From Candidatus Krumholzibacteriia bacterium (GTDB taxonomy: Bacteria; Krumholzibacteriota; Krumholzibacteriia; LZORAL124-64-63), in NCBI GenBank assembly GCA_041908585.1, contig JAYRFB010000118.1:1-60689 (forward strand): DNA of 60,689 nt, given 5' to 3'. Below are positions 5,854 to 54,749 of this stretch, one piece after another. A program made the position numbers and the translations under genes. The notes beneath the pieces were generated by a model. It was given only the letters and a program-made list of their open reading frames with translations. It did not search any database and was not told the DNA's origin. Position 1 is the stretch's first letter. Each line of letters starts with the position of its first letter.

Positions 5854-6344
5854 CGCGCCGCCTCCTGACCGCCCGCGTGAGGACCCTCGCCGGCGGCGCC
5901 GGCGGCGGGCAGGCGACCATCGACCAGCCGGCTCGCGGCCGCCGCGCGGGCGCCTTCCAGCTCGGTCACGGCCGGGGCGTCCTGGCGCTCACGGGCCAGC
6001 CGCAGCTGCAGGTCCAGCAGGTCGAGCTCGAGCGAGGTCTTCAGCGCCGCGATGTCGTGCTGGACGGCCGCGGCGGCGGCCGCGTCGGGAGCGGCGCGGT
6101 AGGCGGCGGTGAGCGCGGCCAGCCGGGCGCTGAACGACTCGCGGATGGCGGCCACCTCGCGGTCCAGCGGCGTTGCCGGTGCCGCCGGCGTGTCCGCCCC
6201 GCCGGCGGGTACCGCGACGAAGACGGTCGAATCGGCAGGGGCGGCTTCGGTCTGCGCCTGCGCCTGCGCCTGGCCGAAGGCGAGCCAGCAGGCCGCAAGG
6301 GTCAGGGCCGCGGCCCTGGGCTGGGGAATCGTGCGTGCGGACAT
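5850..6344 (-). CDS. Small secreted Ala-rich, probably helical protein of unknown function, translationally coupled to the metalloprotease
   Basis: ORF 5850..6344 (164 aa). Signal peptide MSARTIPQPRAAALTLAACWLAFGQAQA. The C-terminal half is heptad-like (IAALKTSLELDLLDLQLRLARERQ). Its stop overlaps the protease start (ATGA at 5850-5853). G/C-rich third positions. Confidence 0.65.
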   Translation of the reverse strand: MSARTIPQPRAAALTLAACWLAFGQAQAQAQTEAAPADSTVFVAVPAGGADTPAAPATPLDREVAAIRESFSARLAALTAAYRAAPDAAAAAAVQHDIAALKTSLELDLLDLQLRLARERQDAPAVTELEGARAAAASRLVDGRLPAAGAAGEGPHAGGQEAAR

Positions 6345-9758: not shown

Positions 9759-9826
9759 GCGCCGGTTCGTGCTATCATCATGGGAATCGCGGGGGCGGCC
9801 CGCCCCGCCCCGCAGGAGGGACAACC

Positions 9827-12016
9827 GTGCAGCACATCCGTTTCGCCCAGGCGGCACCCCGTGCCGCGATCCTGTCGGCCGTCGTCCTGTCGGCCGTCGT
9901 CCTGTCGGCCGTCATCCTGTCGGCCGCCGTCCTGATCCCCGGCGTCCGCATGCCGGTCGTCCATGCCGGCGGTCGCGCGGCCCCCGCCCCGGTGGCGAAC
10001 GGCGGCGCGGCGGTCTCGGCGGGCGTGGCCGCGGCGCTGGGTGACGAGGCGCATCCGCTGCGGCGGCCCGACGGCCGCCTCAAGGTCTGGGTGCGCTTCC
10101 GCGATCGCGATGTTGCGCCCGCGGCGATGGGGGCGGCGCTGGCGGCGGCCGGCGATGAGCTGTCGCCCCGCGCGCGGGCCCGTCGCGCGAAGGTCGCCGC
10201 CGCGACCGGCCTGCCGGCCGTCGACGCGCGCGACCTGCCGGTGCCGCCGCGGTACCTGGCCCGCTGCGTGGCCACCGGGGCCGAGCTCCACCGCCGCAGC
10301 CGCTGGCTGAACGCGGCGACCTTCCTGGCCGACGATGACCAGGTACGCGCGCTGGCGGCGCTGCCCGAGGTGGCGTCGATCGAGCCGGTGGCCCGGCTTG
10401 CCCGCGCGGCGATCCCCACGCCCGTGCCCGAGCCGGACCGGGTGCCGGCGACCGCGCCCAAGGCGCGGACGGTCATCGACTACGGCGGCAACGCCGACGC
10501 CATGGCGCAGGCCAACGTCCCGGCGGCGCACGAGCAGCTCGGCGTGACCGGCGCGGGCGTGGTCGTCGGCATGCTGGACACCGGCTTCCGCACGCAACAC
10601 GTGGCGCTGTCCCATATCCCGGTGCTCGGCGCCTGGGACTTCGTCAACGACGACCCCATCGTCGACAACGAGCCGGGGGACCCGACCTCCAGCCGCAACC
10701 ACGGCACGATGACCCTCTCGACCGTGGCGGCGCACGCGCCGGGCGATCTCGTCGCGCCGGCCTGGAACGTCGCCGTGCTGCTGGGCAAGACCGAGGACGT
10801 CTCGCAGGAGGTGCCGGTCGAGGAAGACCACTGGGTGGCCGGGCTGGAGTGGTGCGAGGCGCAGGGCGCCGACATCATCTCGTCGTCGCTGGGCTACATC
10901 GACTGGTACCTGTACGCCGACCTGGACGGCGCCACCTGCGTCACCACCGTGGCGGCGGACCTGGCCGCAGGCCGCGGCCTGCTGGTCGTCAACTCGGCGG
11001 GCAACGACCGCGCGAGCACCGGGCACCTGATCGCGCCGGCCGACGCGGACAGCATCGTGAGCGTGGGAGCCGTCGACGCGGCGGGCGTCGTCACCTGGTT
11101 CTCGTCACCGGGCCCGACGGCCGACGGGCGCATCAAGCCGGACGTCGCGGCCCTGGGCCAGTCCAACCGTGTGGTCAGCCCCAGCGACGATGCGGCGTAC
11201 GTCAATGCCTCGGGCACGTCCTTCAGCTGCCCGCTGGTCACGGGCGTGGCCGCGCTCGTGCTCGAGCGCGTGCCGGGACTGCTGCCGATGCAGGTGATCG
11301 AGGCGCTGCGCGCGACGGCCGGGCAGGCGGCGGCGCCGGACAACGACACCGGCTGGGGCATCGTCGACGCCTATGCCGCCGCGACCTGGTTCGGCCCGGT
11401 CTTCGCGCACGCGCCGCTGGCGGCCACGCAGGTCACCGCCGGCCCCTGGCCGGTCACGGCCACGGCGAGCGCCCGGCTCGGGCTGGCGGCCGCGCCGCAG
11501 CTGCGCTGGCGCGTGGCCGGCGGCCCGTGGCAGGAATCCTCCCTGGTCGCGGGCGGTCCGCCGGACCTGTACGGCGGGTGGCTGCCGGCGGTCGCCGCCG
11601 GCCTGACCGTCGAGTACTACCTGGCCGCCGTCGATGGCGGCGGGCACGCCACGACCTGGCCCGTCGGCGGCGCGACCGCGCCCTTCGCGTTCACCGTGGC
11701 GCCGGGAACGTCGCCGGTCGGGGACGCGCCGGCGGCCGCCGCTGCCTGGCTCGCGCCGGCAGCTCCAAACCCGTTCAACCCGCGCACGACCCTGCGCTGG
11801 GGACTGCGCGCCGCGGGCGCAGCCAGGCTGGAGGTCTTTGACGCTCGCGGCCGGCGGGTGCGGACCCTGCTGGACGGCGTGCAGGCGGCGGGCGATCATG
11901 TCACCGTCTGGGACGGTCGCGACGACCGCGGCGCCGCCGCACCGAGCGGCGTCTATTTCGGCCGCCTGGTCGCCGGTGGCGGCACGCGGCAGCAGAAGCT
12001 GCACCTGGTGCGCTAG
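9827..12016 (+). CDS. Secreted S8 subtilisin-family serine protease with a T9SS-type C-terminal sorting domain
   Basis: GTG start at 9827 is preceded by AGGAGGG. Catalytic triad contexts VVVGMLDTGF, NHGTMTLSTVAA and SGTSFSCPLVTGVAALV, plus NSAGN. C-terminus APNPFNPRTTLRWGL..AGAARLEVFDARGRRVRTL...GDHVTVWDGRDDRGAAAPSGVYFGRL...QQKLHLVR. Confidence 0.9.
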   Translation: MQHIRFAQAAPRAAILSAVVLSAVVLSAVILSAAVLIPGVRMPVVHAGGRAAPAPVANGGAAVSAGVAAALGDEAHPLRRPDGRLKVWVRFRDRDVAPAAMGAALAAAGDELSPRARARRAKVAAATGLPAVDARDLPVPPRYLARCVATGAELHRRSRWLNAATFLADDDQVRALAALPEVASIEPVARLARAAIPTPVPEPDRVPATAPKARTVIDYGGNADAMAQANVPAAHEQLGVTGAGVVVGMLDTGFRTQHVALSHIPVLGAWDFVNDDPIVDNEPGDPTSSRNHGTMTLSTVAAHAPGDLVAPAWNVAVLLGKTEDVSQEVPVEEDHWVAGLEWCEAQGADIISSSLGYIDWYLYADLDGATCVTTVAADLAAGRGLLVVNSAGNDRASTGHLIAPADADSIVSVGAVDAAGVVTWFSSPGPTADGRIKPDVAALGQSNRVVSPSDDAAYVNASGTSFSCPLVTGVAALVLERVPGLLPMQVIEALRATAGQAAAPDNDTGWGIVDAYAAATWFGPVFAHAPLAATQVTAGPWPVTATASARLGLAAAPQLRWRVAGGPWQESSLVAGGPPDLYGGWLPAVAAGLTVEYYLAAVDGGGHATTWPVGGATAPFAFTVAPGTSPVGDAPAAAAAWLAPAAPNPFNPRTTLRWGLRAAGAARLEVFDARGRRVRTLLDGVQAAGDHVTVWDGRDDRGAAAPSGVYFGRLVAGGGTRQQKLHLVR
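9871..9930 (+). repeat. In-frame 15-bp tandem repeat, 4 copies (CCTGTCGGCCGTCGT), encoding (LSAVV)n inside the S8 protease signal peptide
   Basis: Units at 9871-9885, 9886-9900, 9901-9915 and 9916-9930. The first two are identical and the last two carry 1-2 substitutions. Translation: ILSAVVLSAVVLSAVILSAAVL. Confidence 0.9.
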
Positions 12017-12060: not shown

Positions 12061-13590
12061 ATGGCCAAGAGCACGACGCGCTTCTTCTGCACCGATTGCG
12101 GTCACGAGGAGCTGCGGTGGCTGGGACAGTGCCCGGCCTGCCAGGCCTGGAACACATTCACGGAACTGAAAGTCGCGCCGTCTGCCGGCGCCTCCAGGGG
12201 CGCCCGTGGCTACAGCGCCGCGGGGCGCCGTCCCGTCGGCTTCGGCGCCGACGCACGGGCCGGGGGCACTCCCGCCGGCGCCGCGCCGCAGCCGGTGCCC
12301 CTGGCGCAGGTGGAATCGGCCGCCACGCGCCGCCTGCCTGTCGAGCCGGCCGAGGTCGCGCGCGTGCTCGGCGGCGGCCTGGTCGAGGGCTCGGTGGTTC
12401 TGCTGGGCGGCGAGCCGGGCGTCGGCAAGTCCACGCTGCTGACCGGGCTGGCGCTGTGGTGGGTGCGCCAGGGCGTGCGCGTGGTCTACCTGGCCGGGGA
12501 GGAGTCGCCGGCCCAGATCCGCATGCGCGCCGAGCGGCTCGGTTTCCGGCCCGACCGCGAGCCCGGCTTCCTGATCCTGCCCGAGGTCCACCTCGAGACC
12601 ATCCTCGGCGCGCTCGACGAGTCGACGCTCGCCGCCGCGGCCGGCGCCAGGCCCGCGGCACCGCCACCGGCGGCGACGGTCGTGATCGCCGATTCGATCC
12701 AGACCCTGCACAGCGACCAGGTCGACGCATATCCCGGAAGCCCCACGCAGATCCGCTACTGCGGCGGTGTGCTGGCGGACTTCGCGCGGCGCAGCGGCTG
12801 GCCGGTGTTCCTGGTCGGCCACGTCACCAAGACGGGCGACCTGGCGGGTCCCAAGCTCCTGGAGCACATGGTCGACACCGTGCTCTACTTCGAGGGCTCG
12901 GGCGGCGGCGCCATCCGCATGGTGCGCGCCGTGAAGAACCGCTTCGGCACCACCGGCGAGCTGGCCGTCATGGAGATGCGCGGCGAGGGCCTGGTGCCGG
13001 TCGACCAGGCGGGCCTGATGTTCCTGAGCGGGACGCGCGGTGTCGAGCCGGGGGCGGCGGTCTGCGCCGTCAAGAACGGCTCGCGCACGTTCCTGGTCGA
13101 GGTGCAGGCGCTGGTCTCGCCGGCAAGGTACGGCACGCCGCAGCGCGTGGTGCAGGGCGTCGACAGCAAGCGCGTGGCGCTGCTCGCGGCCATCCTCGAG
13201 AAGCGCGCCGGCCTGGACCTGGCCGGCTGCGACATCTTCGTCAAGGTGGCCGGCGGCGGCCGTATCGACGATCCGGGCGCCGACCTGGCGGTCATCGCCG
13301 CGCTGGCCAGCTCGCTGCGCGAGCGACCGGTGCCGGAGGGTACGCTGGTCCTGGGCGAGGTGGGCCTGACCGGCGAGGTGCGCGGCGTGGCGGAGCTGGA
13401 GGCGCGCCTGCGCGAGGCGGCCGGGCACGGGTTCACGCGCGTCGTGCTGGCCGCGGTGGCCGGGCGCCGGCCGCGGGGCGTCAAGGGGATCGAGCTGGCC
13501 GCGGCGGCGAGCGTCGAGGAGGCCGTGGCGCTGGCGCTGGAGCCGGGCCGCGCCGCCGCGCCGCGCCGCGCGCGCGAGGCGACGCCGTGA
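12061..13590 (+). CDS. radA: DNA repair protein RadA/Sms
   Basis: N-terminal C4 zinc finger (FFCTDCGHEELRWLGQCPACQAWNT), Walker A GGEPGVGKSTLL, the KNRFG motif, and a Lon-protease-like C-terminal domain. Confidence 0.95.
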   Translation: MAKSTTRFFCTDCGHEELRWLGQCPACQAWNTFTELKVAPSAGASRGARGYSAAGRRPVGFGADARAGGTPAGAAPQPVPLAQVESAATRRLPVEPAEVARVLGGGLVEGSVVLLGGEPGVGKSTLLTGLALWWVRQGVRVVYLAGEESPAQIRMRAERLGFRPDREPGFLILPEVHLETILGALDESTLAAAAGARPAAPPPAATVVIADSIQTLHSDQVDAYPGSPTQIRYCGGVLADFARRSGWPVFLVGHVTKTGDLAGPKLLEHMVDTVLYFEGSGGGAIRMVRAVKNRFGTTGELAVMEMRGEGLVPVDQAGLMFLSGTRGVEPGAAVCAVKNGSRTFLVEVQALVSPARYGTPQRVVQGVDSKRVALLAAILEKRAGLDLAGCDIFVKVAGGGRIDDPGADLAVIAALASSLRERPVPEGTLVLGEVGLTGEVRGVAELEARLREAAGHGFTRVVLAAVAGRRPRGVKGIELAAAASVEEAVALALEPGRAAAPRRAREATP

Positions 13591-14318
13591 GCGCTGCCCG
13601 GCCCGCCACGTTGCCACCCCTGCACCTGCTGGTGGTCGCCGGCGGTCGCGGCCTGCGCGCGGCCGGCGGCGGCGAGGTGCCCAAGCAGTTCCGGCCCACC
13701 GGCCGCGGCATGCTGCTGCGCGTGGCCATCGACACGTTCGTCGCCGGCGACCCGGCGCATCCCGCGCCCCTGGCCTCGGTGACGGTGACGGCGCCGGCAG
13801 CCTGGCACCGGCAGGTGGCGGCGGAGCTGTCCGGGCTGGGGCTGCCCCTGGCGCTTGCCGATGCCGGCGCGACGCGCACAGCCTCGACCTGGAACGGGCT
13901 GCTGGCGCTCGAGGCTGCCGTGCGGCCGCGGCCGGGCGACCTGGTGGCGATCCACGACGCCGCGCGACCGTTCGCCAGCGCGGAGCTCCTGGCGCGGCTG
14001 GCGGCGGCGGCGGCCGCGCGCGGCGGGGCGGTGCCGGGCGTGCCGGTCCACGACACCATCGTGCACGCCGAGCAGGGGCAGGCGCGCTACCTGGCGCGGG
14101 AGTCGCTGGTCGCCGTGCAGACGCCGCAGGTGTTCCGCTGGGAGCAGCTGCGCGAGGCCCACGCCTGGGCCGCCGCCTCGCACGCCACGTTCACCGACGA
14201 CGGCGGGCTGCTGGCCGCGCGCGGCCATGCCCCGGCCGTGGTGGACGGCGAGATCGGCAACTGGAAGGTCACCACCGAGGGCGACTGGCGGCGCGCCGCC
14301 GACCTGCTGGTCGAGTAG
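13587..14318 (+). CDS. ispD: 2-C-methyl-D-erythritol 4-phosphate cytidylyltransferase
   Basis: GTG 13587 overlaps the radA stop (GTGA); the track ORF 11634..14318 is over-extended. Motifs VVAGGRGLR....PKQF, IHDAARPF and VQTPQVFR. Confidence 0.85.
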   Translation: MSAARPATLPPLHLLVVAGGRGLRAAGGGEVPKQFRPTGRGMLLRVAIDTFVAGDPAHPAPLASVTVTAPAAWHRQVAAELSGLGLPLALADAGATRTASTWNGLLALEAAVRPRPGDLVAIHDAARPFASAELLARLAAAAAARGGAVPGVPVHDTIVHAEQGQARYLARESLVAVQTPQVFRWEQLREAHAWAAASHATFTDDGGLLAARGHAPAVVDGEIGNWKVTTEGDWRRAADLLVE

Positions 14319-14369
14319 CGCCCGGGCGCGACCGTCGCGGCGCCCGTCCCGGAGACCAGGCGCGGCCGC

Positions 14370-15014
14370 TCAGTCCAGGTCCGCGACCAGGCGCCCCGTC
14401 GAAGCGTCGCGATACAGCTTGATCTGCCGGTACAGTTTCAGACCCACGCGGCCCTGACGGATGCCCTGCAGCAGGTCGTCCAGGCACTGCCCGAGGTCGC
14501 GCTGCTGCTCGCGGAGCATCGCCAGGCGGTCCTGCATCGCGCGCCGGTCGGCGGGCGCCGCCTCGACCACGGCCTCGGCCGCGTGCCAGGCCTTGAGCGC
14601 CAGCACGCTCAGGCGGTCGATGATGCTGCCCGGCGACTCGCTGTTGAGCGGCGCCGAGGGATCGATCACGCCCAGCGCCGAGTAGCCGGCGTGGATCACG
14701 GCATCGAGGCGATCGACGGCCTGGACGCGCCGGCGGTTGGATTCGTCGATGGAACGCTTGACCGCCGCCAGCACCGCGTCGCCGGCCCCGTGGGCGCGGC
14801 TGCGGTCCTCCTCGTGCCACTGGAACGTGTTGATCAGCTGCAGCTGCTCGACCAGCCGCGCCCAGCCCTCGGGCTCGCGCGGCGGCAGCGCGCCCAGGGT
14901 CTCGGTCCAGTCGGCGGGCGCCGGCGCGGCCCCGTGCCAGCGCTCGATCACCTCGTCCAGGACGGGCGCCACCGCGGCGAACGACGGGGGCAGCAGAGCG
15001 GCGGGATCGGGCAT
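14370..15014 (-). CDS. Cytoplasmic hypothetical protein, DUF4254-like (assignment from memory)
   Basis: These are the last 214 codons of track ORF 14370..19391, whose remainder is antisense shadow. Start codon (cat on plus) at 12-14 of 150xx, i.e. 15012-15014. Sequence MPDPAALLPP...QLINTFQWHEEDRSR...SIDESNRRRVQAVDRLD... has the W..ED..R and N..R...I..iD pattern I associate with DUF4254. Confidence 0.65.
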   Translation of the reverse strand: MPDPAALLPPSFAAVAPVLDEVIERWHGAAPAPADWTETLGALPPREPEGWARLVEQLQLINTFQWHEEDRSRAHGAGDAVLAAVKRSIDESNRRRVQAVDRLDAVIHAGYSALGVIDPSAPLNSESPGSIIDRLSVLALKAWHAAEAVVEAAPADRRAMQDRLAMLREQQRDLGQCLDDLLQGIRQGRVGLKLYRQIKLYRDASTGRLVADLD

Positions 15015-15218
15015 GGCGGATTCCACGGGATTCTCCTCGGGCCGGCCGGTCCGGTGCGGGCAAGGGGAACTGGGTGGGAGCCGTCTCACCGGCGCCCCTT
15101 GCGCCACGTTACGCTGCCGGTGGCAGGCGGGCAACCGCCGCTTGGCGCGGCCGCGGGCGCCGGTTACCATGGCGCGGCCACCCGCCGCCCGCCGCGCGCA
15201 CAAGGAGCCGTGACCGCC

Positions 15219-29537: not shown

Positions 29538-31043
<1,506 letters not shown>

Positions 31044-31172
31044 CGACGACTCCCCCGTTGGCAAGGCGACCACGGCGCCCCTGCGCGCGGCCAGGCTCCA
31101 TCCGTTCATGCGGCTATTCATGCGACCGCGGCGACGACCGGTCAACAGCCATGTGTGCGGCACCGGGCAATG

Positions 31173-31201
31173 GAAAAGGGGATCGCGCGCGGGCGACCCC
31201 C
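31173..31201 (-). terminator. Intrinsic terminator-like hairpin plus U-tract downstream of the 46-aa peptide gene
   Basis: The minus strand reads GGGGGUCGC-CCGCGC-GCGAUCCCC-UUUU (9-bp stem with one G-U pair) and starts ~39 nt after the TAG at 31240-31242. Confidence 0.55.
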
Positions 31202-31239
31202 TTCCCGGTTCCGCTGGTCGGCGTCGCCGAGGCGAGCGC

Positions 31240-31380
31240 CTATTCCATGTGCAGCCGCAGGTTGTCGATGACGCTCGTCGGCGTCGGCGTGACCGACCCG
31301 CGACCGTTCGAATAGTCCCCGAAGACGCCCAGCTCCAGGCGCTTGGTCTTGAGCTCCGGCTTGCAATAAGTCTTTTTCAT
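31240..31380 (-). CDS. Stand-alone 46-aa peptide MKKTYCKPELKTKRLELGVFGDYSNGRGSVTPTPTSVIDNLRLHME (unknown family; RiPP-leader-like N-terminus)
   Basis: Uses the internal ATG (31378-31380) of track ORF 31240..31425. AGGAGG at 31391-31396 lies 10 nt upstream. Third codon positions are almost all G/C from codon 8 onward, like the surrounding genuine genes. The gene is flanked by its own promoter-like element and terminator. Confidence 0.65.
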   Translation of the reverse strand: MKKTYCKPELKTKRLELGVFGDYSNGRGSVTPTPTSVIDNLRLHME

Positions 31381-31467
31381 TTCCGGACAACCTCCTGAAC
31401 CACGGGCGCGGGCCCGACCCTCCAAAGGCGCCGGACATCCCCCGTCCGCCTTTTTCCCCCTGCAACC

Positions 31468-31496
31468 ATGTTATCCCCAAGCCGGGCCGCCGTCAA
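31468..31496 (-). promoter_or_regulatory. Sigma70-like promoter for the peptide gene: TTGACG - 17 nt - TAACAT
   Basis: On the minus strand the -35 TTGACG is at 31491-31496 and the -10 TAACAT at 31468-31473. An A/T-rich stretch (CAAAATAAAACTC) immediately upstream stands out in this GC-rich DNA. The predicted leader is ~80 nt. Confidence 0.45.
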
Positions 31497-31512
31497 GTTG
31501 AATCTCGGAGTT

Positions 31513-33363
31513 TTATTTTGCGCTATGGTGGCCTTGCTGGGCGGCGTGCAGCGTGGCGTACAGCCCCTGCCGGGCCAGCAGCTGGTCGTGGCTCCCGGAC
31601 TCGACGATCCGGCCCTCGGCCAGCACCACGATCAGGTCCAGGTCCCGCACCAGGGACAGGCGATGGGCGATGACCAAGGCCGTGCGCCCGTGCATGGCAG
31701 CGCGCATCGCCTGGCGGATCTCCTCCTCGGCGTTGGCATCGAGGGCGCTGGTCGGCTCGTCCATGACCAGCAGTCCGGGATCGCGCAGGAAGGCGCGCGC
31801 CAGCGCGATACGCTGGCGCTGCCCGCCGCTGAGGCGGATGCCGCGCTCGCCGGTGACCGAGTCCAGTCCCAGCGGGAGGTCGTCGGCGAAGCTGTCCACG
31901 CCGGCCTGCCCGGCGGCGCGGCGCACGGCCGCCTCGTCCGCGCCCTCGAGCCCGAAGCGGATGTTCGCGGCCAGGCTGATGTCGTACAGCACGGGGTCCT
32001 GCGCCACGAAGGCCATGCCGGCGCGCAGGGCCGCGGGGTCCAGGTCGGCGTACGGTTGCCCGTCCAGCCACAGGCGCCCGGTCGACGGCGGGTACAGCCC
32101 CATGATCAGCCCGGCCAGGGTGGTCTTCCCCGACCCCGACGGGCCCACAAGGCCCACCCACTGCCCCGGGGCGATGTCCAGGTCGATCCCGCGCAGGACC
32201 TCGCGCCCGGCGCCGCCGCCCGCGGCCGGGTAGGTGAAGCCGACGCCCTCGAGGCGGATGCCCAGCGGCGCGTGCCGCGCGACCGGCACGGGGGCGGCCG
32301 GGTCGCGCTCGGGCGGCTGGGCGAAGATGTCGTCCAGCCGGGCGGCCGCCGCGGCGGCGCCCTGCGCCTCGGCGTAGAGGCTCGACAGCGAGGCCAGGGG
32401 CATCGCCACGCGGAAGGCCAGCAGAAGGAAGGCCACCAGCTCGCCGCCGGTGGCCTGGCCGCGCGCGGCCAGCACGAAGCCGTAGACGACGACGCCGACC
32501 AGGCAGACCCACAGCGCCATCTGGATGCCGGCCTCGAGCGCCGCCTGCAGCCAGGCGCGGCGCAGCCCGTCGCGGCGATAGCCCTCGACCATCGCCTCGA
32601 ACCGCGACTTCTCGTGGCCCTGGGCGTTGTGGACCTTCAGCGTGGCGATGCCGCCGACGGTCTCCTGCACGTGGCTGCTGAGCAGGCCCAGGCTGTCGTA
32701 CATGCGGCGCGAGAGGCGGCGCAGGCGGGTCCCGAACAGGCGCACCAGCAGGATCGTCGCCGGGATCAGGAGCACGACCACCAGGGCCAGCCGAGGGTTC
32801 AGCCGCGTCATGAGCGCGAGTGCGCCGACCAGCGTCAGGAGCGCGCGCACCAGGGCGACCAGGCCGCCGGTCAGCACGTACTGGATGGCGCCGACATCGC
32901 CGGTCACGCGCGTGGAGAGATCGCCGGCCTTCTGCCCGGTGAAGAACAGCGCCGGCAACTCCAGCAGGTGCGCGTAGAGGCGCTGCCGCAGGCGGGTCAC
33001 CGTCTCCAGGGCCAGCCGCGCCGAGACCACCGAGAACAGGAAGGAGCCGGCCAGCTGGGCCAGCAGCAGCGCGCCCAGCCAGGCGAGCAGCCGGCGGTCG
33101 GCGATGCCGGCGCCGGTCGCGGCTGCGGCCGCGTCGACGAACCGCCCGGCCACCAGCGGGATGGCCAGGCTGACCGAGGTGGCCAGCAGCATCAGGACGC
33201 CCGCGGTCGCGAGCGCGGCCTCCTGGCCGCGCAGCAGCGAGAGGTAGGGGCGCAGCGCGGACAGGCCCGCGCGCGGGCCCCTGGCCCCGCCGGGAGCAGC
33301 CGCGTCATCGCCGGGAGACGCCGCCTGGTGTCGGGCCGGGCTCGATTTCACTTCAGTCTCCAT
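31513..33363 (-). CDS. Half-size ABC exporter (TMD-NBD; MsbA/PglK/McjD-like)
   Basis: ORF 31513..33363 (616 aa). Six-TM N-terminal domain, Walker A GPSGSGKTT, signature LSGGQRQRIALARAF, Walker B LLVMDEPTSALD, H-loop VIAHRL. There is no N-terminal C39 peptidase domain. Confidence 0.9.
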   Translation of the reverse strand: METEVKSSPARHQAASPGDDAAAPGGARGPRAGLSALRPYLSLLRGQEAALATAGVLMLLATSVSLAIPLVAGRFVDAAAAATGAGIADRRLLAWLGALLLAQLAGSFLFSVVSARLALETVTRLRQRLYAHLLELPALFFTGQKAGDLSTRVTGDVGAIQYVLTGGLVALVRALLTLVGALALMTRLNPRLALVVVLLIPATILLVRLFGTRLRRLSRRMYDSLGLLSSHVQETVGGIATLKVHNAQGHEKSRFEAMVEGYRRDGLRRAWLQAALEAGIQMALWVCLVGVVVYGFVLAARGQATGGELVAFLLLAFRVAMPLASLSSLYAEAQGAAAAAARLDDIFAQPPERDPAAPVPVARHAPLGIRLEGVGFTYPAAGGGAGREVLRGIDLDIAPGQWVGLVGPSGSGKTTLAGLIMGLYPPSTGRLWLDGQPYADLDPAALRAGMAFVAQDPVLYDISLAANIRFGLEGADEAAVRRAAGQAGVDSFADDLPLGLDSVTGERGIRLSGGQRQRIALARAFLRDPGLLVMDEPTSALDANAEEEIRQAMRAAMHGRTALVIAHRLSLVRDLDLIVVLAEGRIVESGSHDQLLARQGLYATLHAAQQGHHSAK

Positions 33364-33579: not shown

Positions 33580-35439
33580 ATGTGCGGCATCTTGTGCAGG
33601 CATGCGCGCCGGCAAACGCACCCGGCCTCCGCTCCCGCACACCGGGCCGAGGAGCTTCCGGAACTGCTGGCGCTGCTGGGCCACCGGGGCCCGGACGCGA
33701 CGGGCACGCGCACGCATGGCGCGGCCTGGCTTGGGCACACCCGCCTTTCGATCCTCGACCTCGAGCTAGGCGACCAGCCCCTCTTCAACGAGGACCACAC
33801 GGTCGCGGTCATCCTCAACGGCGAGATCTACAACCACCACGAGTTGCGCGCGGACCTGCGCTCGCGCGGGCATGTCTTCCGCTCCCGCAGCGACACCGAG
33901 GTGCTTGCCCACCTGTGGGAGGAGTACGGCGAGGCGATGGTCGGCCGCCTGGTCGGCATGTTCGCCTTCGTCGTGCACGACGAGCGCCAGGGCGTGCTGT
34001 TCGCCGCCCGCGACCGGCTGGGGGAGAAGCCGTTGCTCTACGTCGAGGGCGACGGCGAGGTGACGATTGCCTCGGAGCTGAAGGCGCTGCTGCCCCTGCT
34101 GGGACCGGCGCCCCGGATCGACCGGCGTGCGCTGGCCCTCTACCTGAACTGCATGTACGTGCCGGCGCCGCTGACCATTCTCGAGGGCGCCCGCAAGCTG
34201 CCGCCGGCCCACTGGCTGCGCCACGACGCGCAGGGGCTGACGATACGGCGCTACTGGGAACCGCGCCTGACGGTGGACTGGTCGATGACGGAAGCCGAGG
34301 CCGTCGCTGGCCTGCGCGAGCGACTGCAGGCGGCCGTCGCCTCCCAGCTGGAGGCCGATGTGCCGGTCGGGATCTTCCTTTCCGGCGGACTGGACTCGGC
34401 GGCGGTCGTGGCGTGCGCTGCGGCGGCGGGCGGCAGGATGCCGGCCACGTACACCATGGGCATGGGCGGCGGCCTGGACGAGCGCCAATGGGCGAAGCAG
34501 GTTGCCGAGCGGTTCGGGACAAGGCACCACGAGATGTGGGCGGACCCGCATGTGGAGGAGCTCTTTCCCCGCCTGATGGACCATCTCGACGAGCCGTTCG
34601 CCGACAGCTCGGTCCTGCCCACGTACATGGTCGCGCATGCGGCGAGCCGGCACCTGAAGGTGGTGCTGACTGGGGACGGCGGCGATGAGCTGATGGCGGG
34701 CTACGATGCGTACCTGTGGCAGGCGGCGCAGCGCTCGACGCGGCTGGGCGGTCGCATCCGGCGGCGGCTGGCCCGGTATGGGTTGAAGTCCGGCTACGAC
34801 CGGGACGCTCGCGGTGCGTGGCCTCTGCGCAACTGGCTGCATGTGCGCAGCGTTATCCACGACGATGAACTCCCGGACTGGGTGGGCGAGTCGGTGGCCG
34901 GCGTCGAGCGCTTCTGGGAAGGACCGCGCTGGCTCGAACTGGCCGACACGGACCCGCTTTCGGTCGCCTTCGGGCACGACTTCAACTACTACCTGCCTGA
35001 CGACCTCCTCAAGAAGGTCGACATGGCGTCCATGTTCGCAGGCCTTGAATGCCGGGCGCCGTTCCTCGATTATCGGCTCGTCGAGTTCGGCATGCGGATC
35101 CCCCCGACGCTGAAGGTGCGGGGGGGGCGGACGAAGCACCTGCTGCGCGAGGCGATGCGGGGCACCCTGCCCGAGGCCATCCTGGACCGCCCGAAGCAGG
35201 GCTTCGGCTCGCCCATCGGGCTCTGGCTGCAGGGACCGCTGCGCGAGGTGGCCCGGGATCTGCTGGCGCCGGGCTGCCGCTGCGAGGACTGGGTGGCGCC
35301 GGCCGTGGTTCGCGGCGTGGTTGATGCGATGTGGGCCGGGCCGCCGGCGGAGAACTGGCGCCTGCCCCAGCGGTTCTGGACGCTCCTGGCTCTCGAATGG
35401 TGGCTCCGCCGCCATGAGCGGGCGGACCGGATCGGGTGA
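33580..35439 (+). CDS. Asparagine synthase (glutamine-hydrolysing) family amidotransferase, glycan-locus type
   Basis: ORF 33580..35439 (619 aa). N-terminal MCGI (Cys2 Ntn nucleophile), LNGEIYNH, and PP-loop FLSGGLDSAAVV. Confidence 0.9.
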   Translation: MCGILCRHARRQTHPASAPAHRAEELPELLALLGHRGPDATGTRTHGAAWLGHTRLSILDLELGDQPLFNEDHTVAVILNGEIYNHHELRADLRSRGHVFRSRSDTEVLAHLWEEYGEAMVGRLVGMFAFVVHDERQGVLFAARDRLGEKPLLYVEGDGEVTIASELKALLPLLGPAPRIDRRALALYLNCMYVPAPLTILEGARKLPPAHWLRHDAQGLTIRRYWEPRLTVDWSMTEAEAVAGLRERLQAAVASQLEADVPVGIFLSGGLDSAAVVACAAAAGGRMPATYTMGMGGGLDERQWAKQVAERFGTRHHEMWADPHVEELFPRLMDHLDEPFADSSVLPTYMVAHAASRHLKVVLTGDGGDELMAGYDAYLWQAAQRSTRLGGRIRRRLARYGLKSGYDRDARGAWPLRNWLHVRSVIHDDELPDWVGESVAGVERFWEGPRWLELADTDPLSVAFGHDFNYYLPDDLLKKVDMASMFAGLECRAPFLDYRLVEFGMRIPPTLKVRGGRTKHLLREAMRGTLPEAILDRPKQGFGSPIGLWLQGPLREVARDLLAPGCRCEDWVAPAVVRGVVDAMWAGPPAENWRLPQRFWTLLALEWWLRRHERADRIG

Positions 35440-39718: not shown

Positions 39719-41617
39719 TCAGCCCTGGCCCGTCCGCGCGGCCAGCCACTTGCTGAACATCAGCAGCGAGAAGATGGCCTTGTCGTTGAGATTCCGGCGC
39801 GCTTGGTGGTCCGTCACCAGCGCGCCGACTTCTTCCGGCCGGAAGTAGCCCTCGCCAGCCAGGCGCGCCGGGTCCAGCAGGCGGTCCACGACCGGCCGCA
39901 GGTCGCTATGCAGCCAGGCCGACAGCGGCGCGCAGAAGCCCTGCTTGCGGTGTGAGATCACCGGTTCGGGCAGCAGGCGCCGGGCCGCGACCTTCAGCAG
40001 GTGCTTCTTGTCCGTTCCCCTGATCTTCACGTCCTGCGGCAGGCGCGCGCAGAACTCCACGACCTTGTGGTCGACGAACGGCACCCGCAGCTCCAGCGAG
40101 TGGTGCATGCCCACGCGGTCGGACAGCGCCAGGATGTCGTCCGGCAGGTACATCTTGAGGTCCTGGTACAGGGCGCCGTCGAGCCAGTCGCCACCCTCGA
40201 GACTCTCGAAATGGCGGCGACCCAGCCGCTCCACGAAATCGAAATCGATGCGATCGGCCACCTCCGGACGGTACAACCGCCGGCGCTGTTCCGGCGTCAG
40301 CGCGCGGATGTAGCTCTGGTACACCTGCGCCGGCGGCAGGTCGCCGGCGGCGACGAACCGCTTGAGGTGGTTGACGCGATTGCCGCCGCCCCGCGGCTCC
40401 CGCAGGGAACGCACGAGCGGCCCGACCAGGCCGCGGCGAAGCGCCGCGGGCAGGGCGCGGTAGCGGCGATGGAGCTGGAAGCCAAGGTACCGCTCGTAGC
40501 CGCCGAAGTCCTCGTCGCCGCCCAGTCCGGTCAGGACCACGGTTACGTGCTTCCTGGCCTCGGCGCAGATGTGGTAGGTCGGGATGAGGCCGTCATCGGC
40601 GAAGGGCTCATCGAAGGCGGCCACGGCGGCGTCCAGGGCGGTCTCGATGTGGGGAATCACCTCGAGCTCGCGGTGCGCGGTTCCGTAGCGCTCGGCGATC
40701 ATGCGGGCGAACGGGCGCTCGTCGAGGAAGTCTCCGGTCTCGCCGCCGAAGCCGATCGTGAACGTGTTCACCGGCGTCGTTGCCGCCCGGCTCATCAGCG
40801 CGACGACCACGCCCGAGTCGATCCCGCCGCTGAGGAACGAGCCGAGCGGCACCTCGCTCATCAGGCGGATGGCCGTGGCCTCACCCATCAGGTCCAGGAA
40901 CTCGCCGGCCAGCTCGGTCGCATCGCCCTTGAGCTTGTCGTCGAAGCGCACGTCCCAGTACTGCTCGTCTCGCACCTGCCCGTGCTCGCAGACCAGCCGG
41001 TGGCCCGGCTCCAGCTTGCGGATGCCCCGATGGATGGTCAGCGGTGCCGGGATGTAGTTGTAGGCGAAGAAGGCGTCAAAGGCGTTCCAGTCCATCCCGC
41101 TGTCGATCCCGGGCAGGCTCAGCAGGGCCTTCATCTCGGAGGCGAAGGCGAGCCTCTCCCGGTCCAGGGCGACGAACAGCGGCTTGACGCCCAGCCGGTC
41201 GCGGGCCAGCAGGAGGCGGCGGCGCGGGGCGTCCCAGATCGCGAAGGCGAACATGCCGCGCAGCTCGTGCACGCAATCATCGCCGAACTGCTCGTAGGCA
41301 TGGAGGATGGTCTCGGTGTCCGAGCCGGTCCGGAAGACATGGCCGGCCGCGAGCAGGCGGTCGCGCAGGCCCGAGTGGTTGAAGATCTCGCCGTTGAAAA
41401 CGATGTGGATCGAGCCGTCCTCGTTGGCGATCGGCTGCCTTCCGCTGGCGACGTCGATGATCGCCAGGCGCCGCATCCCGAGCCCGACCGGTCCGTCGGT
41501 GAAGACACCCTGGTCGTCGGGGCCGCGGTGCACGATGGTGTCGCACATCGCCCGGACCAGCCCCGCGTCGGCGGGCCGGTCAGCGCCCAGGTTGAGGTAG
41601 CCGACGATTCCACACAC
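39719..41617 (-). CDS. Asparagine synthase (glutamine-hydrolysing) family amidotransferase, second paralog
   Basis: A GTG start (cac 41615-41617) gives (M)CGIVGYLN; the track ORF extends to 41716. FNGEIFNH and PP-loop FLSGGIDSGVVV. By eye it shows only moderate similarity to the 33580 paralog, so it is not a recent duplicate. Confidence 0.9.
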   Translation of the reverse strand: MCGIVGYLNLGADRPADAGLVRAMCDTIVHRGPDDQGVFTDGPVGLGMRRLAIIDVASGRQPIANEDGSIHIVFNGEIFNHSGLRDRLLAAGHVFRTGSDTETILHAYEQFGDDCVHELRGMFAFAIWDAPRRRLLLARDRLGVKPLFVALDRERLAFASEMKALLSLPGIDSGMDWNAFDAFFAYNYIPAPLTIHRGIRKLEPGHRLVCEHGQVRDEQYWDVRFDDKLKGDATELAGEFLDLMGEATAIRLMSEVPLGSFLSGGIDSGVVVALMSRAATTPVNTFTIGFGGETGDFLDERPFARMIAERYGTAHRELEVIPHIETALDAAVAAFDEPFADDGLIPTYHICAEARKHVTVVLTGLGGDEDFGGYERYLGFQLHRRYRALPAALRRGLVGPLVRSLREPRGGGNRVNHLKRFVAAGDLPPAQVYQSYIRALTPEQRRRLYRPEVADRIDFDFVERLGRRHFESLEGGDWLDGALYQDLKMYLPDDILALSDRVGMHHSLELRVPFVDHKVVEFCARLPQDVKIRGTDKKHLLKVAARRLLPEPVISHRKQGFCAPLSAWLHSDLRPVVDRLLDPARLAGEGYFRPEEVGALVTDHQARRNLNDKAIFSLLMFSKWLAARTGQG

Positions 41618-41786
41618 GCGTTGGCGCCCTTTCGCCGATGACGGGCCCGGCCGCGGGGATCGCGCCGGCTGGCGGCGACATGATGCCTGCGCGCCCGGGA
41701 TTCGGCAAGGATGCACGTTGGCGCGGCGCCGGCTGCACTGCTATGCTGGCGCCGCGCCGGCGGGGGGCCGGCCGCAAGCCCCGGGG

Positions 41787-45177: not shown

Positions 45178-46121
45178 CGGGGGGGGATCCGTTGGCGACG
45201 GGAACGGAGGCGCAGGCGGCGGCGCCGCTGGTGAGCATCGGCCTGCCGGTGTACAACGGGGAGAATTTCCTGCGCCAGGCGCTCGAGTCGCTGTGCGCGC
45301 AGACGGTCGCCGACCTGGAGATCGTCATCTCGGACAACGCCTCGACCGACGGTACCGAGGCTATCTGCCGCGAGTTCGCGGCGCGTGACCGGCGCGTGCG
45401 CTACATCCGCCAGGAGCGCAACCTCGGCGCCGGGCCGAACTACAACTTCGTCTTCCACGCGTCGCGGGGACGCTACTTCAAGTGGGCGGCCCATGACGAC
45501 TACATGGATCCCGAGGCGATGGCCGTCTGCGCCGCGGCGCTTGAAGCCGACCCCCAGTCGGTGCTGTGCCACCCGCTCCTGGTCGATGTGGACGAGCAAG
45601 GCCATGTCATTGCCGAGTTCGACCGCGGGACGGCGGGCCTCGGCCCCGCGCGCGACCGCTTCTTCCAGGTGATCCAGATCGGGCACAACTGCGCCGAAGT
45701 GTTCGGCCTGACCCGGCGCTCGGCCCTGCTGCAGACGGGCCTGATCCGCGACTACACCGACAGCGACCGCACGCTGCTCGGGGAGCTGGCGCTGCGGGGC
45801 CGCCTGCGACAGGCGGCGGGTGCGCGTTTCTACCGGCGCATCCACGGTCGCAAGTCCGACAAGGTCTTCGCCAGCTATCACGAGCGCGCCGCCTGGTTCA
45901 ACCCGGCCAACCAGGGCCGGCTCGTGCTCTCGGCCTGGAACCAGCTGAAGGACCTGCTGGGCTCGTGGTGGCGCTGCGACCTGCCGGCCGGCGAGAAGCT
46001 GGCCTGCCTGTGGCGCCTGGCCAAGGTCACGAAGTGGAACGCGCCGCTCTACCGGATGGAGCTGGCCTGGGCCTGGCGGCATCGCTTCGGGCGGCGTTCC
46101 GGCGCCGGCGGTGCGCGATGA
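45174..46121 (+). CDS. Family 2 glycosyltransferase
   Basis: GTG 45174 overlaps the upstream stop (GTGA). VSIGLPVYNGENFL, ISDNASTDGT, AAHDD. Confidence 0.8.
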   Translation: MTGGDPLATGTEAQAAAPLVSIGLPVYNGENFLRQALESLCAQTVADLEIVISDNASTDGTEAICREFAARDRRVRYIRQERNLGAGPNYNFVFHASRGRYFKWAAHDDYMDPEAMAVCAAALEADPQSVLCHPLLVDVDEQGHVIAEFDRGTAGLGPARDRFFQVIQIGHNCAEVFGLTRRSALLQTGLIRDYTDSDRTLLGELALRGRLRQAAGARFYRRIHGRKSDKVFASYHERAAWFNPANQGRLVLSAWNQLKDLLGSWWRCDLPAGEKLACLWRLAKVTKWNAPLYRMELAWAWRHRFGRRSGAGGAR

Positions 46122-48145
46122 CCCTGCTGCTGCGCGACGACTTTCGCGGCGACCGGCGCGCCGGGAGCGCCCTTGGGCCTGCCCGCGACGGCGACCCGGC
46201 GCGTGGCGGCGTCGACGTCGAGCGCCTGCTGTCGGTCGACGGCGGGGCCCTGCGCATCATGCCCCCGCTGCACGCGGGCTGGGGGCGCACCTGCCTGTCC
46301 TACGGGCCGTTCGCCAACGAGCGCGGGCTGGCCTTCTCCGTGCAGCTGCTCAATGGGCACAACACCTCGCAGTCGGAAGTCATGGCCGACACCCTGCGCT
46401 CGCGCGTTGCGCGCTGGGCGCGAGGCAGCGGCGCCGTACCGGTCGCCCGGCGGCTGCGCCGCTGGCTCGTCAGCGGGCGCGTGCGCCGCACGCTGCGGCA
46501 GGTGCGGTGGTGGCGGCAGATCGCGACCGGATCGGCCCGGGTCAACCTGCTGGACGAGAACCTCGCGGTCGGGTTCTACCCGGCCGCCGTCGGTGACCCG
46601 ACGCGTGCGGGCGCCGGCTTCGTGATGCACGCCGATGGTCCTCGCAACGGCGAGCTGTGGGCAGGAGCCGACGGACAGTGGGCACCGGTCGTTCTCGGGG
46701 TCCAGAACGTGCCGATCACGTACGTGGCCATCGTCCGCGAGTACGACGTGCTGCTCGGCGCGGCCTCGCTGCCGGGTGCCCACGGCCTCGGCGCCCATCC
46801 CTGCCTGCGGCCCCTGGCCGTCGTGGCGCGCCCGGACGCCCCGCGCGTGCATGCCGGCGTGCACCAGGCGGTGCTCGGGCAGATCGGATTCCGCGCCGAT
46901 ACGCGCGTTCACGGGGCGCGCGTGGCGCGCCTGGAGGCGCGCGACCTGGAGCGACTGCTGCCGCTCGCGGCGGACCAGGGACTGGCCGGCGCCGTGCTGG
47001 CCGGCCGCGCGGCCGCTGTCGGCGGGACCTGGCACCAGGCGGGAGACCTGGCGCTGCTGGATGCAGGCCGTCCGGTGGGCCTGACGGTGATCAGCTGCGA
47101 TCCCGGGCGCCTGGGGGCCGGCGCCGTCGTCGTGCGTGGCGGCGCCGCGGCCGACGGCAGCGCGGGTTGGGAGCTGCGGCTGGCCGCGGACGGCGCCGCG
47201 CTGGCGACCTGGCCCCCGGGCGGCGACGGCGAGGTGGCGGCGTGTTCCTGGTCTGACTGCCCGGGTCGCGTGCAGGTCCTCGATGATGGACGCGAGCTGG
47301 CGGTGCTGGCTCCCGGCGGCCTGTTGTTCGGGCGCCGATTCCGTTCGCCGGGCGATGGCCCGGGCACGGCGCTGGCCGCCATGGCGCTCGCGGGGCGCGC
47401 GCCGGCCGGGCTGCTCGGGGTCGAAGCGATGGCCCGCGAGCTTGACCTGCCGGACGAGCTGCTGGCCGGCGAGCCCTGGAATCCGGAGTCGGGCGCTGAG
47501 GTGGCGGCCGATCCGCTGGAGGGACCGCCCGGCGACCTGGACGGTCGCGCCCTGCCCGGCGGCGGCGTCGCCTGGCGCCGCCTGCGCGGGTCGGGAGTCC
47601 TCGAGTCCGACGGTGCCGGAGGCGCGCGCTGGCATGCCGACCCGTCGCGACCGTTGCCCGACCGCACGATCTACGCGATCGACTGGCCCGACCCGGGGTT
47701 TGCCGACCTGGAGGTGACCTTGACGCCGCCCGGCACCGCGCGCGGGCAGCGCCAGCACGGCACGGCGGGCTTCTGCCTGTGGCAGGACGAGGACCACCAC
47801 CTGCTGGTCAACACCTGGCTTGACGACGGTTACGGCGGAGCCTCGCTGTCGTCGTTCTTCACGATCGGCGGCTTCGAGGACCTCTACGACGCCATCTGGA
47901 CGAACGTCGGCGATCGCGTGACCTGGGGTCGGCCGCTTCGGTTGCGCCTGGTCAGCGACGGGCTGCGCTACACGGTGAGCCTGGACGGCGAGCCCGTCCT
48001 GCACCGCTCGTTGGCCGACGTCTATCCCGGTTGCCGTCCCCTGCGCATCACGCAGGTCGGGCTGCTCGGCAACTGGGAGTGGGGCGCCGACACGGGGAGC
48101 CGGTTCTCCGGGTTCCGCGCCGCGGCCCGGCAGGGGAGGCGATAG
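46118..48145 (+). CDS. 675-aa cytoplasmic protein of unknown function (two jelly-roll/LamG-like regions suspected)
   Basis: ATG 46118 overlaps the upstream stop (ATGA), in the frame of track ORF 45566..48145. No signal peptide or TM segment. N-terminus MTLLLRDDFRGD....DVERLLSVDGGALRI. C-terminal third ...GFCLWQDEDHHLLVNTWLDDGYGGASLSSFF...LRLRLVSDGLRYTVSLDGEPVL. G/C-rich third positions throughout. Confidence 0.75.
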   Translation: MTLLLRDDFRGDRRAGSALGPARDGDPARGGVDVERLLSVDGGALRIMPPLHAGWGRTCLSYGPFANERGLAFSVQLLNGHNTSQSEVMADTLRSRVARWARGSGAVPVARRLRRWLVSGRVRRTLRQVRWWRQIATGSARVNLLDENLAVGFYPAAVGDPTRAGAGFVMHADGPRNGELWAGADGQWAPVVLGVQNVPITYVAIVREYDVLLGAASLPGAHGLGAHPCLRPLAVVARPDAPRVHAGVHQAVLGQIGFRADTRVHGARVARLEARDLERLLPLAADQGLAGAVLAGRAAAVGGTWHQAGDLALLDAGRPVGLTVISCDPGRLGAGAVVVRGGAAADGSAGWELRLAADGAALATWPPGGDGEVAACSWSDCPGRVQVLDDGRELAVLAPGGLLFGRRFRSPGDGPGTALAAMALAGRAPAGLLGVEAMARELDLPDELLAGEPWNPESGAEVAADPLEGPPGDLDGRALPGGGVAWRRLRGSGVLESDGAGGARWHADPSRPLPDRTIYAIDWPDPGFADLEVTLTPPGTARGQRQHGTAGFCLWQDEDHHLLVNTWLDDGYGGASLSSFFTIGGFEDLYDAIWTNVGDRVTWGRPLRLRLVSDGLRYTVSLDGEPVLHRSLADVYPGCRPLRITQVGLLGNWEWGADTGSRFSGFRAAARQGRR

Positions 48146-54633: not shown

Positions 54634-54749
54634 TAAAGACGATCATTTGCAACAAGTTAGGCCTGTCGAAAGCGAGCCAGGGTGGCCGCTCGCGAGCATG
54701 GCTGAGCTTCATAAGCTCAAATTAACGCACAAAATGCATTTTACCTCTG

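Follow-up and report, generated by a model that had tools for sequence, protein, structure and literature searches.

A stand-alone 46-residue peptide gene conserved across Krumholzibacteriota as a candidate RiPP-type precursor

What is specified by the short interval between a half-size ABC exporter gene and an OmpA-family gene in contig JAYRFB010000118.1 of a Candidatus Krumholzibacteriia bacterium (assembly GCA_041908585.1)? The stretch under study, 60,689 nt in total and referred to here as the window, carries in this interval a minus-strand open reading frame (ORF) of 46 codons that is nested within a mechanically predicted ORF of 61 codons. An initial annotation had proposed that the shorter frame is a monocistronic gene for a peptide of an unrecognized family with a leader motif like that of peptides that are synthesized ribosomally and modified post-translationally (RiPPs). 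Comparative analysis identifies the frame as a genuine, conserved gene and places it in a family that numbers several hundred protein clusters and is described in no database or paper. RiPP-precursor hallmarks are evident in the family, and a radical-SAM/PqqD gene cluster is associated with at least one of its branches. The best explanation, to which a probability of ~0.5 is assigned, is that the window gene specifies a RiPP-type precursor that would be matured by enzymes encoded elsewhere.

The frame initiates at ATG (31380-31378), terminates at TAG (31242-31240) and yields the product MKKTYCKPELKTKRLELGVFGDYSNGRGSVTPTPTSVIDNLRLHME. The coordinates of the gene and its signals are collected in Table 1. 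The promoter is the sole sigma-70-like match within positions 30900-31700, compared to a mean of 0.0 in shuffled sequences, and the end of its -10 hexamer is located 87 nt from the ATG. The ABC gene upstream ends with TAA at 31515-31513, which leaves 132 nt between its stop codon and the ATG of the peptide gene. The terminator arms, GGGGGUCGC and GCGAUCCCC, form nine base pairs that include one G-U pair and are followed by UUUU. The third codon position is G or C in 36 of the 39 codons from codon 8 onward, and the overall G+C content at third positions (GC3) is 0.87. The 5′ untranslated region (UTR) and gene region matched no Rfam family at E ≤ 1. The initiation codon, the Shine-Dalgarno (SD) sequence AGGAGG, promoter, A/T-rich patch, hairpin with UUUU, GC3 bias and 132-nt spacing listed in the initial annotation all proved accurate in kind and position.

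These features are beyond chance because all are conserved in relatives. The first homolog search recovered eight protein clusters of 46-49 aa with 72-100% identity to the query. Danish wastewater MAGs (metagenome-assembled genomes) are the source of the close relatives. The A/T-rich patch, the promoter motif ACAACTTGACG-N17-TAnCAT, AGGAGG and the ORF were all retained in ten close loci, among which the promoter motif was invariant, the core of the patch (CAAAATAAA) was kept and the terminator hairpin persisted with both arms changing together. The SD site reads AGGAGG or GGGAGG in the close loci and is GGAGG-like in most distant ones. A scan with one genome per species added 17 loci from MAGs labeled Candidatus Krumholzibacteriota or Krumholzibacteriia, which span 47-72% GC and across which the peptide sequence is retained. 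The element TTGAC[A/G/T]-N17/18-TAnnnT was present upstream at 21 of 24 loci checked across this phylum-wide range (TTGAC[A/G] at 20), most of which also possessed a GGAGG-like site and a hairpin with a T run behind it. Relatives conserve the start M-KK-x-Y, whereas neither the TTG of the 61-codon ORF nor the in-frame sequence 5′ of the ATG is conserved, which bears out the choice of the shorter frame. Downstream of the terminator, the second promoter-like element that precedes the OmpA-like gene also was kept across the close loci, as GTTGACC and CATGAAT or CATCAAT. As the peptide gene has its own conserved promoter, SD site and terminator, and a second promoter follows, it is effectively monocistronic and forms its own transcription unit, as had been proposed.

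The initial annotation had named purifying selection on the frame as a property to be checked, and it is evident. The NG86 dN/dS values against the window sequence ranged from 0.04 to 0.19 in close pairs, for which synonymous sites are unsaturated. When all pairs were pooled, pN was 0.28 versus a pS of 0.75. By region, pN/pS was 0.08 in the leader-like block (residues 2-23), 0.53 in the spacer and 0.36 in the tail. On this comparative evidence the 46-residue ORF is a real protein-coding gene whose correct start is ATG 31380 and, judged by its conserved expression signals, it has the appearance of an expressed gene.

When 1.84 billion representative proteins were searched with a profile, 87 matches (representatives at 50% identity) were returned, nearly all of which are 40-105 aa in length. 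Two more profile searches produced 229 and 119 clusters at 90% identity in overlapping lists, and the family comprises >300 protein clusters. Every match that bears an organism name is assigned to Krumholzibacteriia or plainly to “bacterium.” A common N-terminal block, KKxYxKPxLKxxxIELGV[F/Y]GxY (with GDY at its end in a narrower form of the consensus), unites the members: Y5, G18, V19, G21 and Y23 are invariant family-wide and P8 is nearly so. The sequences diverge after Y23 into widely different tails. In the largest tail group, a Gly/Asp/Asn/Arg-rich spacer of variable length leads to the end PxP[V/I]x[V/I]IxxLxL[H/R]M[E/D], denoted here HME or HMD. The window peptide belongs to this commonest type and ends with PxPVxVIxxLxLHME. 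Other tails end with FNPLFRLCCGG, the Trp-rich GWGWGWWWD, the His/Gly/Arg-rich GGHRGGHGF, NVDPQN, or LNPQG, and the non-HME members P0071, P0223 and P0263 likewise derive from Krumholzibacteriia MAGs. AlphaFold2 modeling of the window peptide with 48 homologs gave a pLDDT of 65.6 and predicted no secondary structure. In combination, the shared N-terminal block, the divergent tails and the predicted disorder follow the grammar of RiPP precursor families.

The family had not been recognized in the initial annotation, and no described family was matched here. The window peptide gave no Pfam or NCBIfam match at E ≤ 0.01 and no match in the Protein Data Bank (PDB) at E ≤ 10. Three other members searched against NCBIfam at E ≤ 0.1 yielded only a chance-level match of residues 1-10 of P0103 to lasso_cyano (E 0.052), and the motif strings of the family were not found in a literature search. 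The family is absent from Pfam, NCBIfam, the PDB and the searchable literature, and as a kind it fits the known logic of RiPP precursors. Its unusual traits are the stand-alone gene, the phylum-wide conservation and the location in a housekeeping-like block.

More than one member can occur in a genome or contig. Two HME-type copies reside on separate contigs (L028 and L029) of one MAG, GMC1.concoct.124. A short metagenome contig, L051, carries tandem members at 201-368 and 559-717 with tails ...VRVVDRFEVHLD and ...TPAIDRFEIHLD. A candidate from Mesorhizobium marinum (L032, 10001-10102) that begins with MKKVYCKPEL, near-identical to window residues 1-10, was rejected as a chance or convergent YxxPxL start because an unrelated long ORF follows residue 10 with no stop codon before the end of the locus. 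Three MAGs with the Krumholzibacteriota-type syntenic block (L016, L025 and L030) are labeled publicly as “uncultured Fibrobacteraceae bacterium” and probably are mislabeled.

The N-terminus of the window peptide includes Y5-C-K-P8-E-L10, which conforms to the lasso-type leader motif [Y/W]xxPx[L/V/I/F/A]. In lasso and linear polyphosphorylated peptide (LPP) pathways this motif is bound by discrete RiPP recognition elements (RREs), and its YxxP portion is essential for binding (PMC13381572). The initial annotation had read the motif as an element recognized by RRE or PqqD-like domains, and this interpretation gains support because a homolog with a CCGG tail adjoins a cluster with PqqD and radical-SAM/SPASM genes. 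The homolog, P0103 (MKKQYNTPHLKTERVEIGVFGQYCS...FFNPLFRLCCG, locus L059), is ~62% identical by eye to the window peptide over the first 24 residues and had an E-value of 5.9e-4 in the profile search of 1.84 billion proteins. Its neighbors (L059, 1067-7111) specify a radical-SAM/SPASM protein, a 91-aa PqqD protein, a 284-aa protein weakly similar to ScmC and HprK, two NTP_transf_5 proteins and an ABC-2 transporter. The radical-SAM protein resembles the peptide maturases StsB, ScmE and PqqE in NCBIfam at scores below the curated cut-offs, and the best NCBIfam match of the PqqD protein is to the lasso PqqD chaperone (2.9e-7), well under the cut-off of that model. A second CCGG-tailed peptide, P0055, on a 1-kb contig (L033, 1-1014) shares two flanking genes with P0103: an 86-aa ORF that is 70% identical between the loci and matches no family, and an NTP_transf_5 gene. 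For the window peptide itself, RRE binding, modification, cleavage, export and a biological role are inferred.

The clusters in L059 and L033 have the appearance of a compact putative RiPP cluster whose likeness to the NCBIfam “SynChlorMet cassette” lies only below curated cut-offs. The contigs of this CCGG branch stem from samples SRR15116522 and 3300050213. A literature search on ScmC and SynChlorMet produced no match.

If the favored interpretation is correct, residues 1-23 (MKKTYCKPELKTKRLELGVFGDY) would act as a leader, in which a PqqD-type RRE would bind the YxxPxL motif together with the IELGVFGDY block that follows it. The remainder of the peptide, with the HME tail as the conserved core, would then be modified and/or released. 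Since the precursor gene, in contrast to those of classical clusters, is a stand-alone transcription unit with a strong promoter of its own, the genes for the recognition protein and the maturase would reside at other sites in the genome. A precedent is offered by the prochlorosin precursors: they are many and dispersed, share a leader and are matured by a single enzyme encoded elsewhere. The family resembles the prochlorosins in its conserved leader, hypervariable tails, several members per lineage and mostly stand-alone genes, but differs in that its leader is unrelated to the Nif11/NHLP type and its unlinked maturase is hypothetical. The predicted disorder is as expected for a precursor peptide and so is counted in favor of a RiPP. 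The concentration of selection on the leader and the occurrence of several members per lineage are counted likewise.

The fit with established classes was assessed. The closest described analogue is the LPP group of Bacillota, whose precursors possess a conserved YxxPxVL... N-terminus and variable C-termini, and whose clusters often are embedded in capsular polysaccharide loci together with an MsbA-like transporter (Popov et al., 2026; PMC13381572). Precursors of LPP and paeninodin-type lasso pathways resemble the window family in being short, with a conserved YxxPx[L/V] N-terminus and highly variable C-termini. The proximity of their clusters to polysaccharide loci and an MsbA-like transporter also is echoed in the window, and locus L059 shares with them a discrete PqqD/RRE, an HprK-like protein and NTP_transf_5 genes. 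The analogy supports the assignment of Y-x-x-P-x-L as an RRE-bound leader. However, the family leader YxKPxLKxxxIELGVFGDY differs from the LPP consensus YxxPxVLxHQxIxFETxxS, of which only the YxxPxL part is matched before the window peptide continues with KTxxIELGVFGDY, and the phylum is a different one. Within the LPP core set, the SpI-type peptidase, discrete RRE, HprK-like kinase and NTP transferase are missing near the window gene, at which only the MsbA-like ABC gene and the co-localized polysaccharide locus correspond. L059 in turn has a radical-SAM/SPASM enzyme instead of an SpI peptidase or lasso cyclase.

That enzyme, together with the PqqD and ScmC-like neighbors, gives the P0103 locus a resemblance to SynChlorMet ScmC/D/E/F, PqqA-PqqD-PqqE and mycofactocin MftA-B-C. 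Members of the family share with the precursors of such radical-SAM/SPASM and PqqD cassettes a small size, disorder and invariant Tyr and Gly residues. In contrast, all matches in L059 fall below curated cut-offs, and such genes are absent in cis from the surroundings of the window peptide. The arrangement of a precursor beside radical-SAM/SPASM and PqqD genes, as in an SCM-like cassette, was found for P0103 in L059, but not at the window gene or any HME locus. The family is not known to share sequence similarity with PqqA or MftA.

Other classes were considered as well. A lasso precursor has Thr at the penultimate position of the leader, a core that starts with Gly, Ala, Ser or Cys, and Asp or Glu at core position 7-9, a description that draws in part on PMC10368454. 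No conserved T-x-G, and no acidic residue properly spaced after any conserved Gly, was found in the family alignments. A lasso cluster had been suggested by the AsnB-like gene divergent to the ABC gene. Such a cluster has an adjacent B protein (an RRE plus a transglutaminase-like peptidase) and C protein (a macrolactam cyclase). Both AsnB homologs of the window score above the cut-off of the asparagine-synthase model (432.6 and 465.6 bits against 267.1), fall short of that of the lasso-cyclase model (210.9 and 239.3 bits against 525) and retain intact GATase domains. The lasso cluster was rejected because the pair are true glutamine-dependent amidotransferases of the XrtA/exopolysaccharide (EPS) type and no B protein is present in the window. 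A double-glycine bacteriocin is not indicated either: the peptide has no GG junction and the ABC protein lacks a C39 domain.

Several observations count against a RiPP precursor. A scan of every long ORF of the 60-kb window revealed solely genes with envelope, signaling and polysaccharide functions, and no gene for an RRE, radical-SAM, YcaO, LanC-like or leader-peptidase protein was found. Nor was an RRE, radical-SAM or other maturase gene present within 10 kb of the HME-type gene in ~25 distinct loci, and the non-HME members in L061 and L062 likewise are without a linked maturase. When the L059 PqqD, ScmC-like and NTP_transf_5 proteins were used as tblastn queries against the window plus ~500 kb of loci, only the expected L033 matches were obtained. 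The proposed unlinked maturase is hypothetical, the genome scope being the 60-kb window and 20-kb pieces of MAGs, and the link to a modification cluster consists of one full locus and one 1-kb fragment, neither of which carries a taxonomic name. Moreover, the phylum-wide conservation of the HME tail within a housekeeping-like syntenic block would suit a conserved function in the cell no less than a natural product, and the near-consensus promoter and SD site suggest high constitutive expression, which would be unusual for RiPP precursors.

In the main alternative, which is possible but less probable than a RiPP precursor, the peptide is an abundant, unmodified small protein that is disordered alone and folds on a conserved partner, such as a regulator or a factor of the envelope, polysaccharide or outer membrane. 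The N-terminal block and VIxxLxLHME then would be two binding motifs on a flexible spacer, and the CCGG peptides would be a side branch that reuses the N-terminus. Such a protein would account for the conservation of both ends with variation only in the spacer, for a single chromosomal position phylum-wide between the flippase gene of a polysaccharide locus and a major OmpA-like gene, for the strong expression signals with their terminator, and for the lack of a cis maturase gene at any HME locus examined. However, AlphaFold2 predicts no structure, and the Trp-rich, His/Gly-rich and CCGG tails behind one N-terminus are hard to square with a single two-motif binder. The RRE-type YxxPxL motif, in an N-terminus common to a peptide inside a radical-SAM/PqqD cluster, also is at odds with this alternative.

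The RiPP interpretation could be extended, although the extension is doubtful: the HME-type peptide would be the one member kept universally in a RiPP system that spans the phylum and relies on unlinked enzymes, and its product would be a conserved, peptide-derived housekeeping molecule (a cofactor, envelope or signaling factor with a status like that of PQQ or mycofactocin) tied to outer-membrane and polysaccharide biogenesis, with the variable-tail paralogs giving accessory products through the same machinery. Evidence in either direction is comparative only. To our knowledge, Krumholzibacteriota has no cultured members and its peptide chemistry is undescribed. Were unlinked maturation true, cluster-based mining with antiSMASH or RODEO would miss almost all of the stand-alone members, and the family therefore would be a useful test case for leader-first mining. 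Were the peptide unmodified, it would be a phylum-specific, highly expressed small protein that stays beside envelope genes, which would be new as well.

A third possibility, that the peptide is exported by the MsbA-like ABC protein and perhaps glycosylated by products of the sugar locus in the manner of LPP/paeninodin clusters, is unlikely. A functional connection with the exporter and OmpA genes had been suggested in the initial annotation, and the ABC gene is indeed directly upstream on the same strand in ~18 distinct loci, with no terminator in the window sequence between its stop codon and the peptide promoter. LPP clusters in capsular polysaccharide loci also have an MsbA-like transporter (PMC13381572), and the tail is Thr/Pro-rich in the close clade of the window. 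The gene order ABC-peptide-OmpA-thioredoxin-TyrRS-EPSP synthase-MatE is retained in most relatives. Nevertheless, as the block is syntenic phylum-wide, the adjacency is for the most part a product of common descent and says little about function. There are exceptions also. In L034 (8254-10150), from a relative in which identity is only 41%, the peptide gene directly follows a Wzx flippase gene (Polysacc_synt) that occupies the position of the ABC gene; the flippase gene closes a different sugar locus (NeuB, PS_pyruv_trans and APH), and heme biosynthesis genes intervene between the peptide and OmpA genes. The ABC gene is missing from L026 and both the ABC and OmpA genes are missing from L028 and L029, whereas in L030 the OmpA gene is 4.5 kb from the peptide gene. 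The ABC protein has no C39 or other peptidase domain in Pfam or NCBIfam searches, the peptide gene is served by a promoter and a terminator of its own, the remaining genes that define LPP clusters (SpI peptidase, RRE, HprK-like kinase and NTP transferase) were not found in the 60-kb window, and the tail Ser/Thr residues are not conserved in distant HME members. The proposed functional link was not upheld. The presence of Wzx in its place suggests that sugar units, rather than the peptide, are what the ABC protein flips or exports, and that both transporters are equivalent in their role for the polysaccharide locus; the ABC gene probably specifies a glycan flippase for the adjacent locus.

Finally, a non-coding explanation, be it a chance ORF in an RNA regulator or a leader ORF through which the downstream OmpA-like gene is controlled, can be set aside: the ORF is short and lies on the same strand as, and upstream of, the latter gene, but dN/dS of 0.04-0.19 while synonymous sites approach saturation effectively refutes this explanation, and the conservation of the protein from 47 to 72% GC, the terminator and separate promoter ahead of the OmpA-like gene, the copies away from any OmpA gene and the lack of an Rfam match at E ≤ 1 concur.

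Table 1. Positions of the peptide gene, its signals and selected neighbors within the window.
Feature	Position	Strand	Remarks
46-aa peptide coding sequence	31240-31380	minus	Stop codon included; homologs found, low dN/dS, no secondary structure predicted
Peptide subdivisions	residues 1-23, 24-31, 32-46		Leader-like block; variable spacer; conserved PxPxxVIxxLxLHME tail
SD sequence AGGAGG	31391-31396	minus	10 nt 5′ of the ATG
5′ UTR, ~80 nt	31381-31461	minus	Putative, as is the transcription start; sequence differs among relatives
Sigma-70-type promoter TTGACG-N17-TAACAT	31468-31496	minus	-35 at 31496-31491; -10 at 31473-31468
A/T-rich, UP-element-like patch CAAAATAAAA	31497-31520	minus	Directly 5′ of -35; overlaps the ABC stop codon
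Intrinsic terminator	31174-31201	minus	9-bp G+C stem, 6-nt loop, UUUU; from sequence, hairpin plus T run kept in relatives
Second promoter-like element GTTGACC...CATGAAT	31116-31145	minus	For the downstream OmpA-like gene; contained in the 5′ end of the 541-aa mechanical ORF
OmpA-family outer-membrane protein gene	29538-31043	minus	Pfam OmpA 8.7e-23
Half-size MsbA-like ABC exporter gene, 616 aa	31513-33363	minus	Transmembrane and nucleotide-binding domains only (Pfam ABC_membrane and ABC_tran); best NCBIfam matches MsbA_rel and MsbA
AsnB-type amidotransferase gene 1	33580-35439	plus	Divergent to the ABC gene
AsnB-type amidotransferase gene 2	39719-41716	minus	

The OmpA-like protein comprises a signal peptide, a barrel-like N-domain, Asp-rich repeats of thrombospondin type 3 character and an OmpA_C domain. 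The mechanical ORF for this protein (29538-31163, minus strand, 541 aa) contains the second promoter-like element, and its real start probably is the ATG at 31043 (MRVKSRGD...), which would give a protein of ~501 aa. An SD-like GGGGGAG site is located 6 nt 5′ of this putative start codon.

Members with other tails occur in other settings. The gene for P0223, a non-HME peptide (L061), lies between the gene for a secreted protein and a trp operon, and that for P0248, a His/Gly-rich non-HME peptide (L062), adjoins an RND efflux operon. A 207-aa conserved protein of no assigned function is specified directly after the P0248-type peptide on two contigs. Downstream of P0248 in L062, positions 12285-15124 contain an AmmeMemoRadiSam trio in which a radical-SAM protein (TIGR04337, 363 bits) is accompanied by a Memo/AMMECR1 fusion. 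The AmmeMemoRadiSam gene, ~2 kb from P0248, was considered as a maturase gene and judged coincidental because it belongs to a different system without a PqqD protein. The neighbors of the divergent-tail members in L031 and L055 gave no informative Pfam match apart from a polyphosphate kinase.

The remainder of the window was surveyed. A polysaccharide locus of EPS or O-antigen type extends over at least 27 kb (33580-60689) and runs past the window end. In addition to the amidotransferase genes, it includes genes for a serine-acetyltransferase-like hexapeptide protein, a Wzy_C protein (~36.0-37.4 kb), several GT2 and GT4 glycosyltransferases, Acyl_transf_3, GtrA and PMT_2 proteins, an NTP transferase, an epimerase and three sugar C-methyltransferases. 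Two intervals of this locus (46100-48100 and 53300-54700) contain no long ORF on either strand that matches Pfam; their high-GC3 frames are broken by in-frame stop codons on the minus strand and may be unrecognized membrane proteins or plus-strand shadow frames. The first 29 kb specify proteins with C-terminal domains of type IX secretion system (T9SS) type, a TPR Ser/Thr kinase, an S8 peptidase, a SpoIIE phosphatase, an MFS transporter, a TonB-dependent receptor and a PAS histidine kinase, as well as the MatE, EPSP synthase, TyrRS and thioredoxin-like proteins. Very large proteins of secreted type, including one S8 subtilase, are encoded at 1324-5988 (minus strand) and 9257-12016 (plus strand) and carry C-terminal domains like FlgD_ig or Por_Secre_tail. 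The same domain occurs near peptide paralogs in L026, L028, L061 and L062, which suggests that T9SS-type cargo is common in the lineage.

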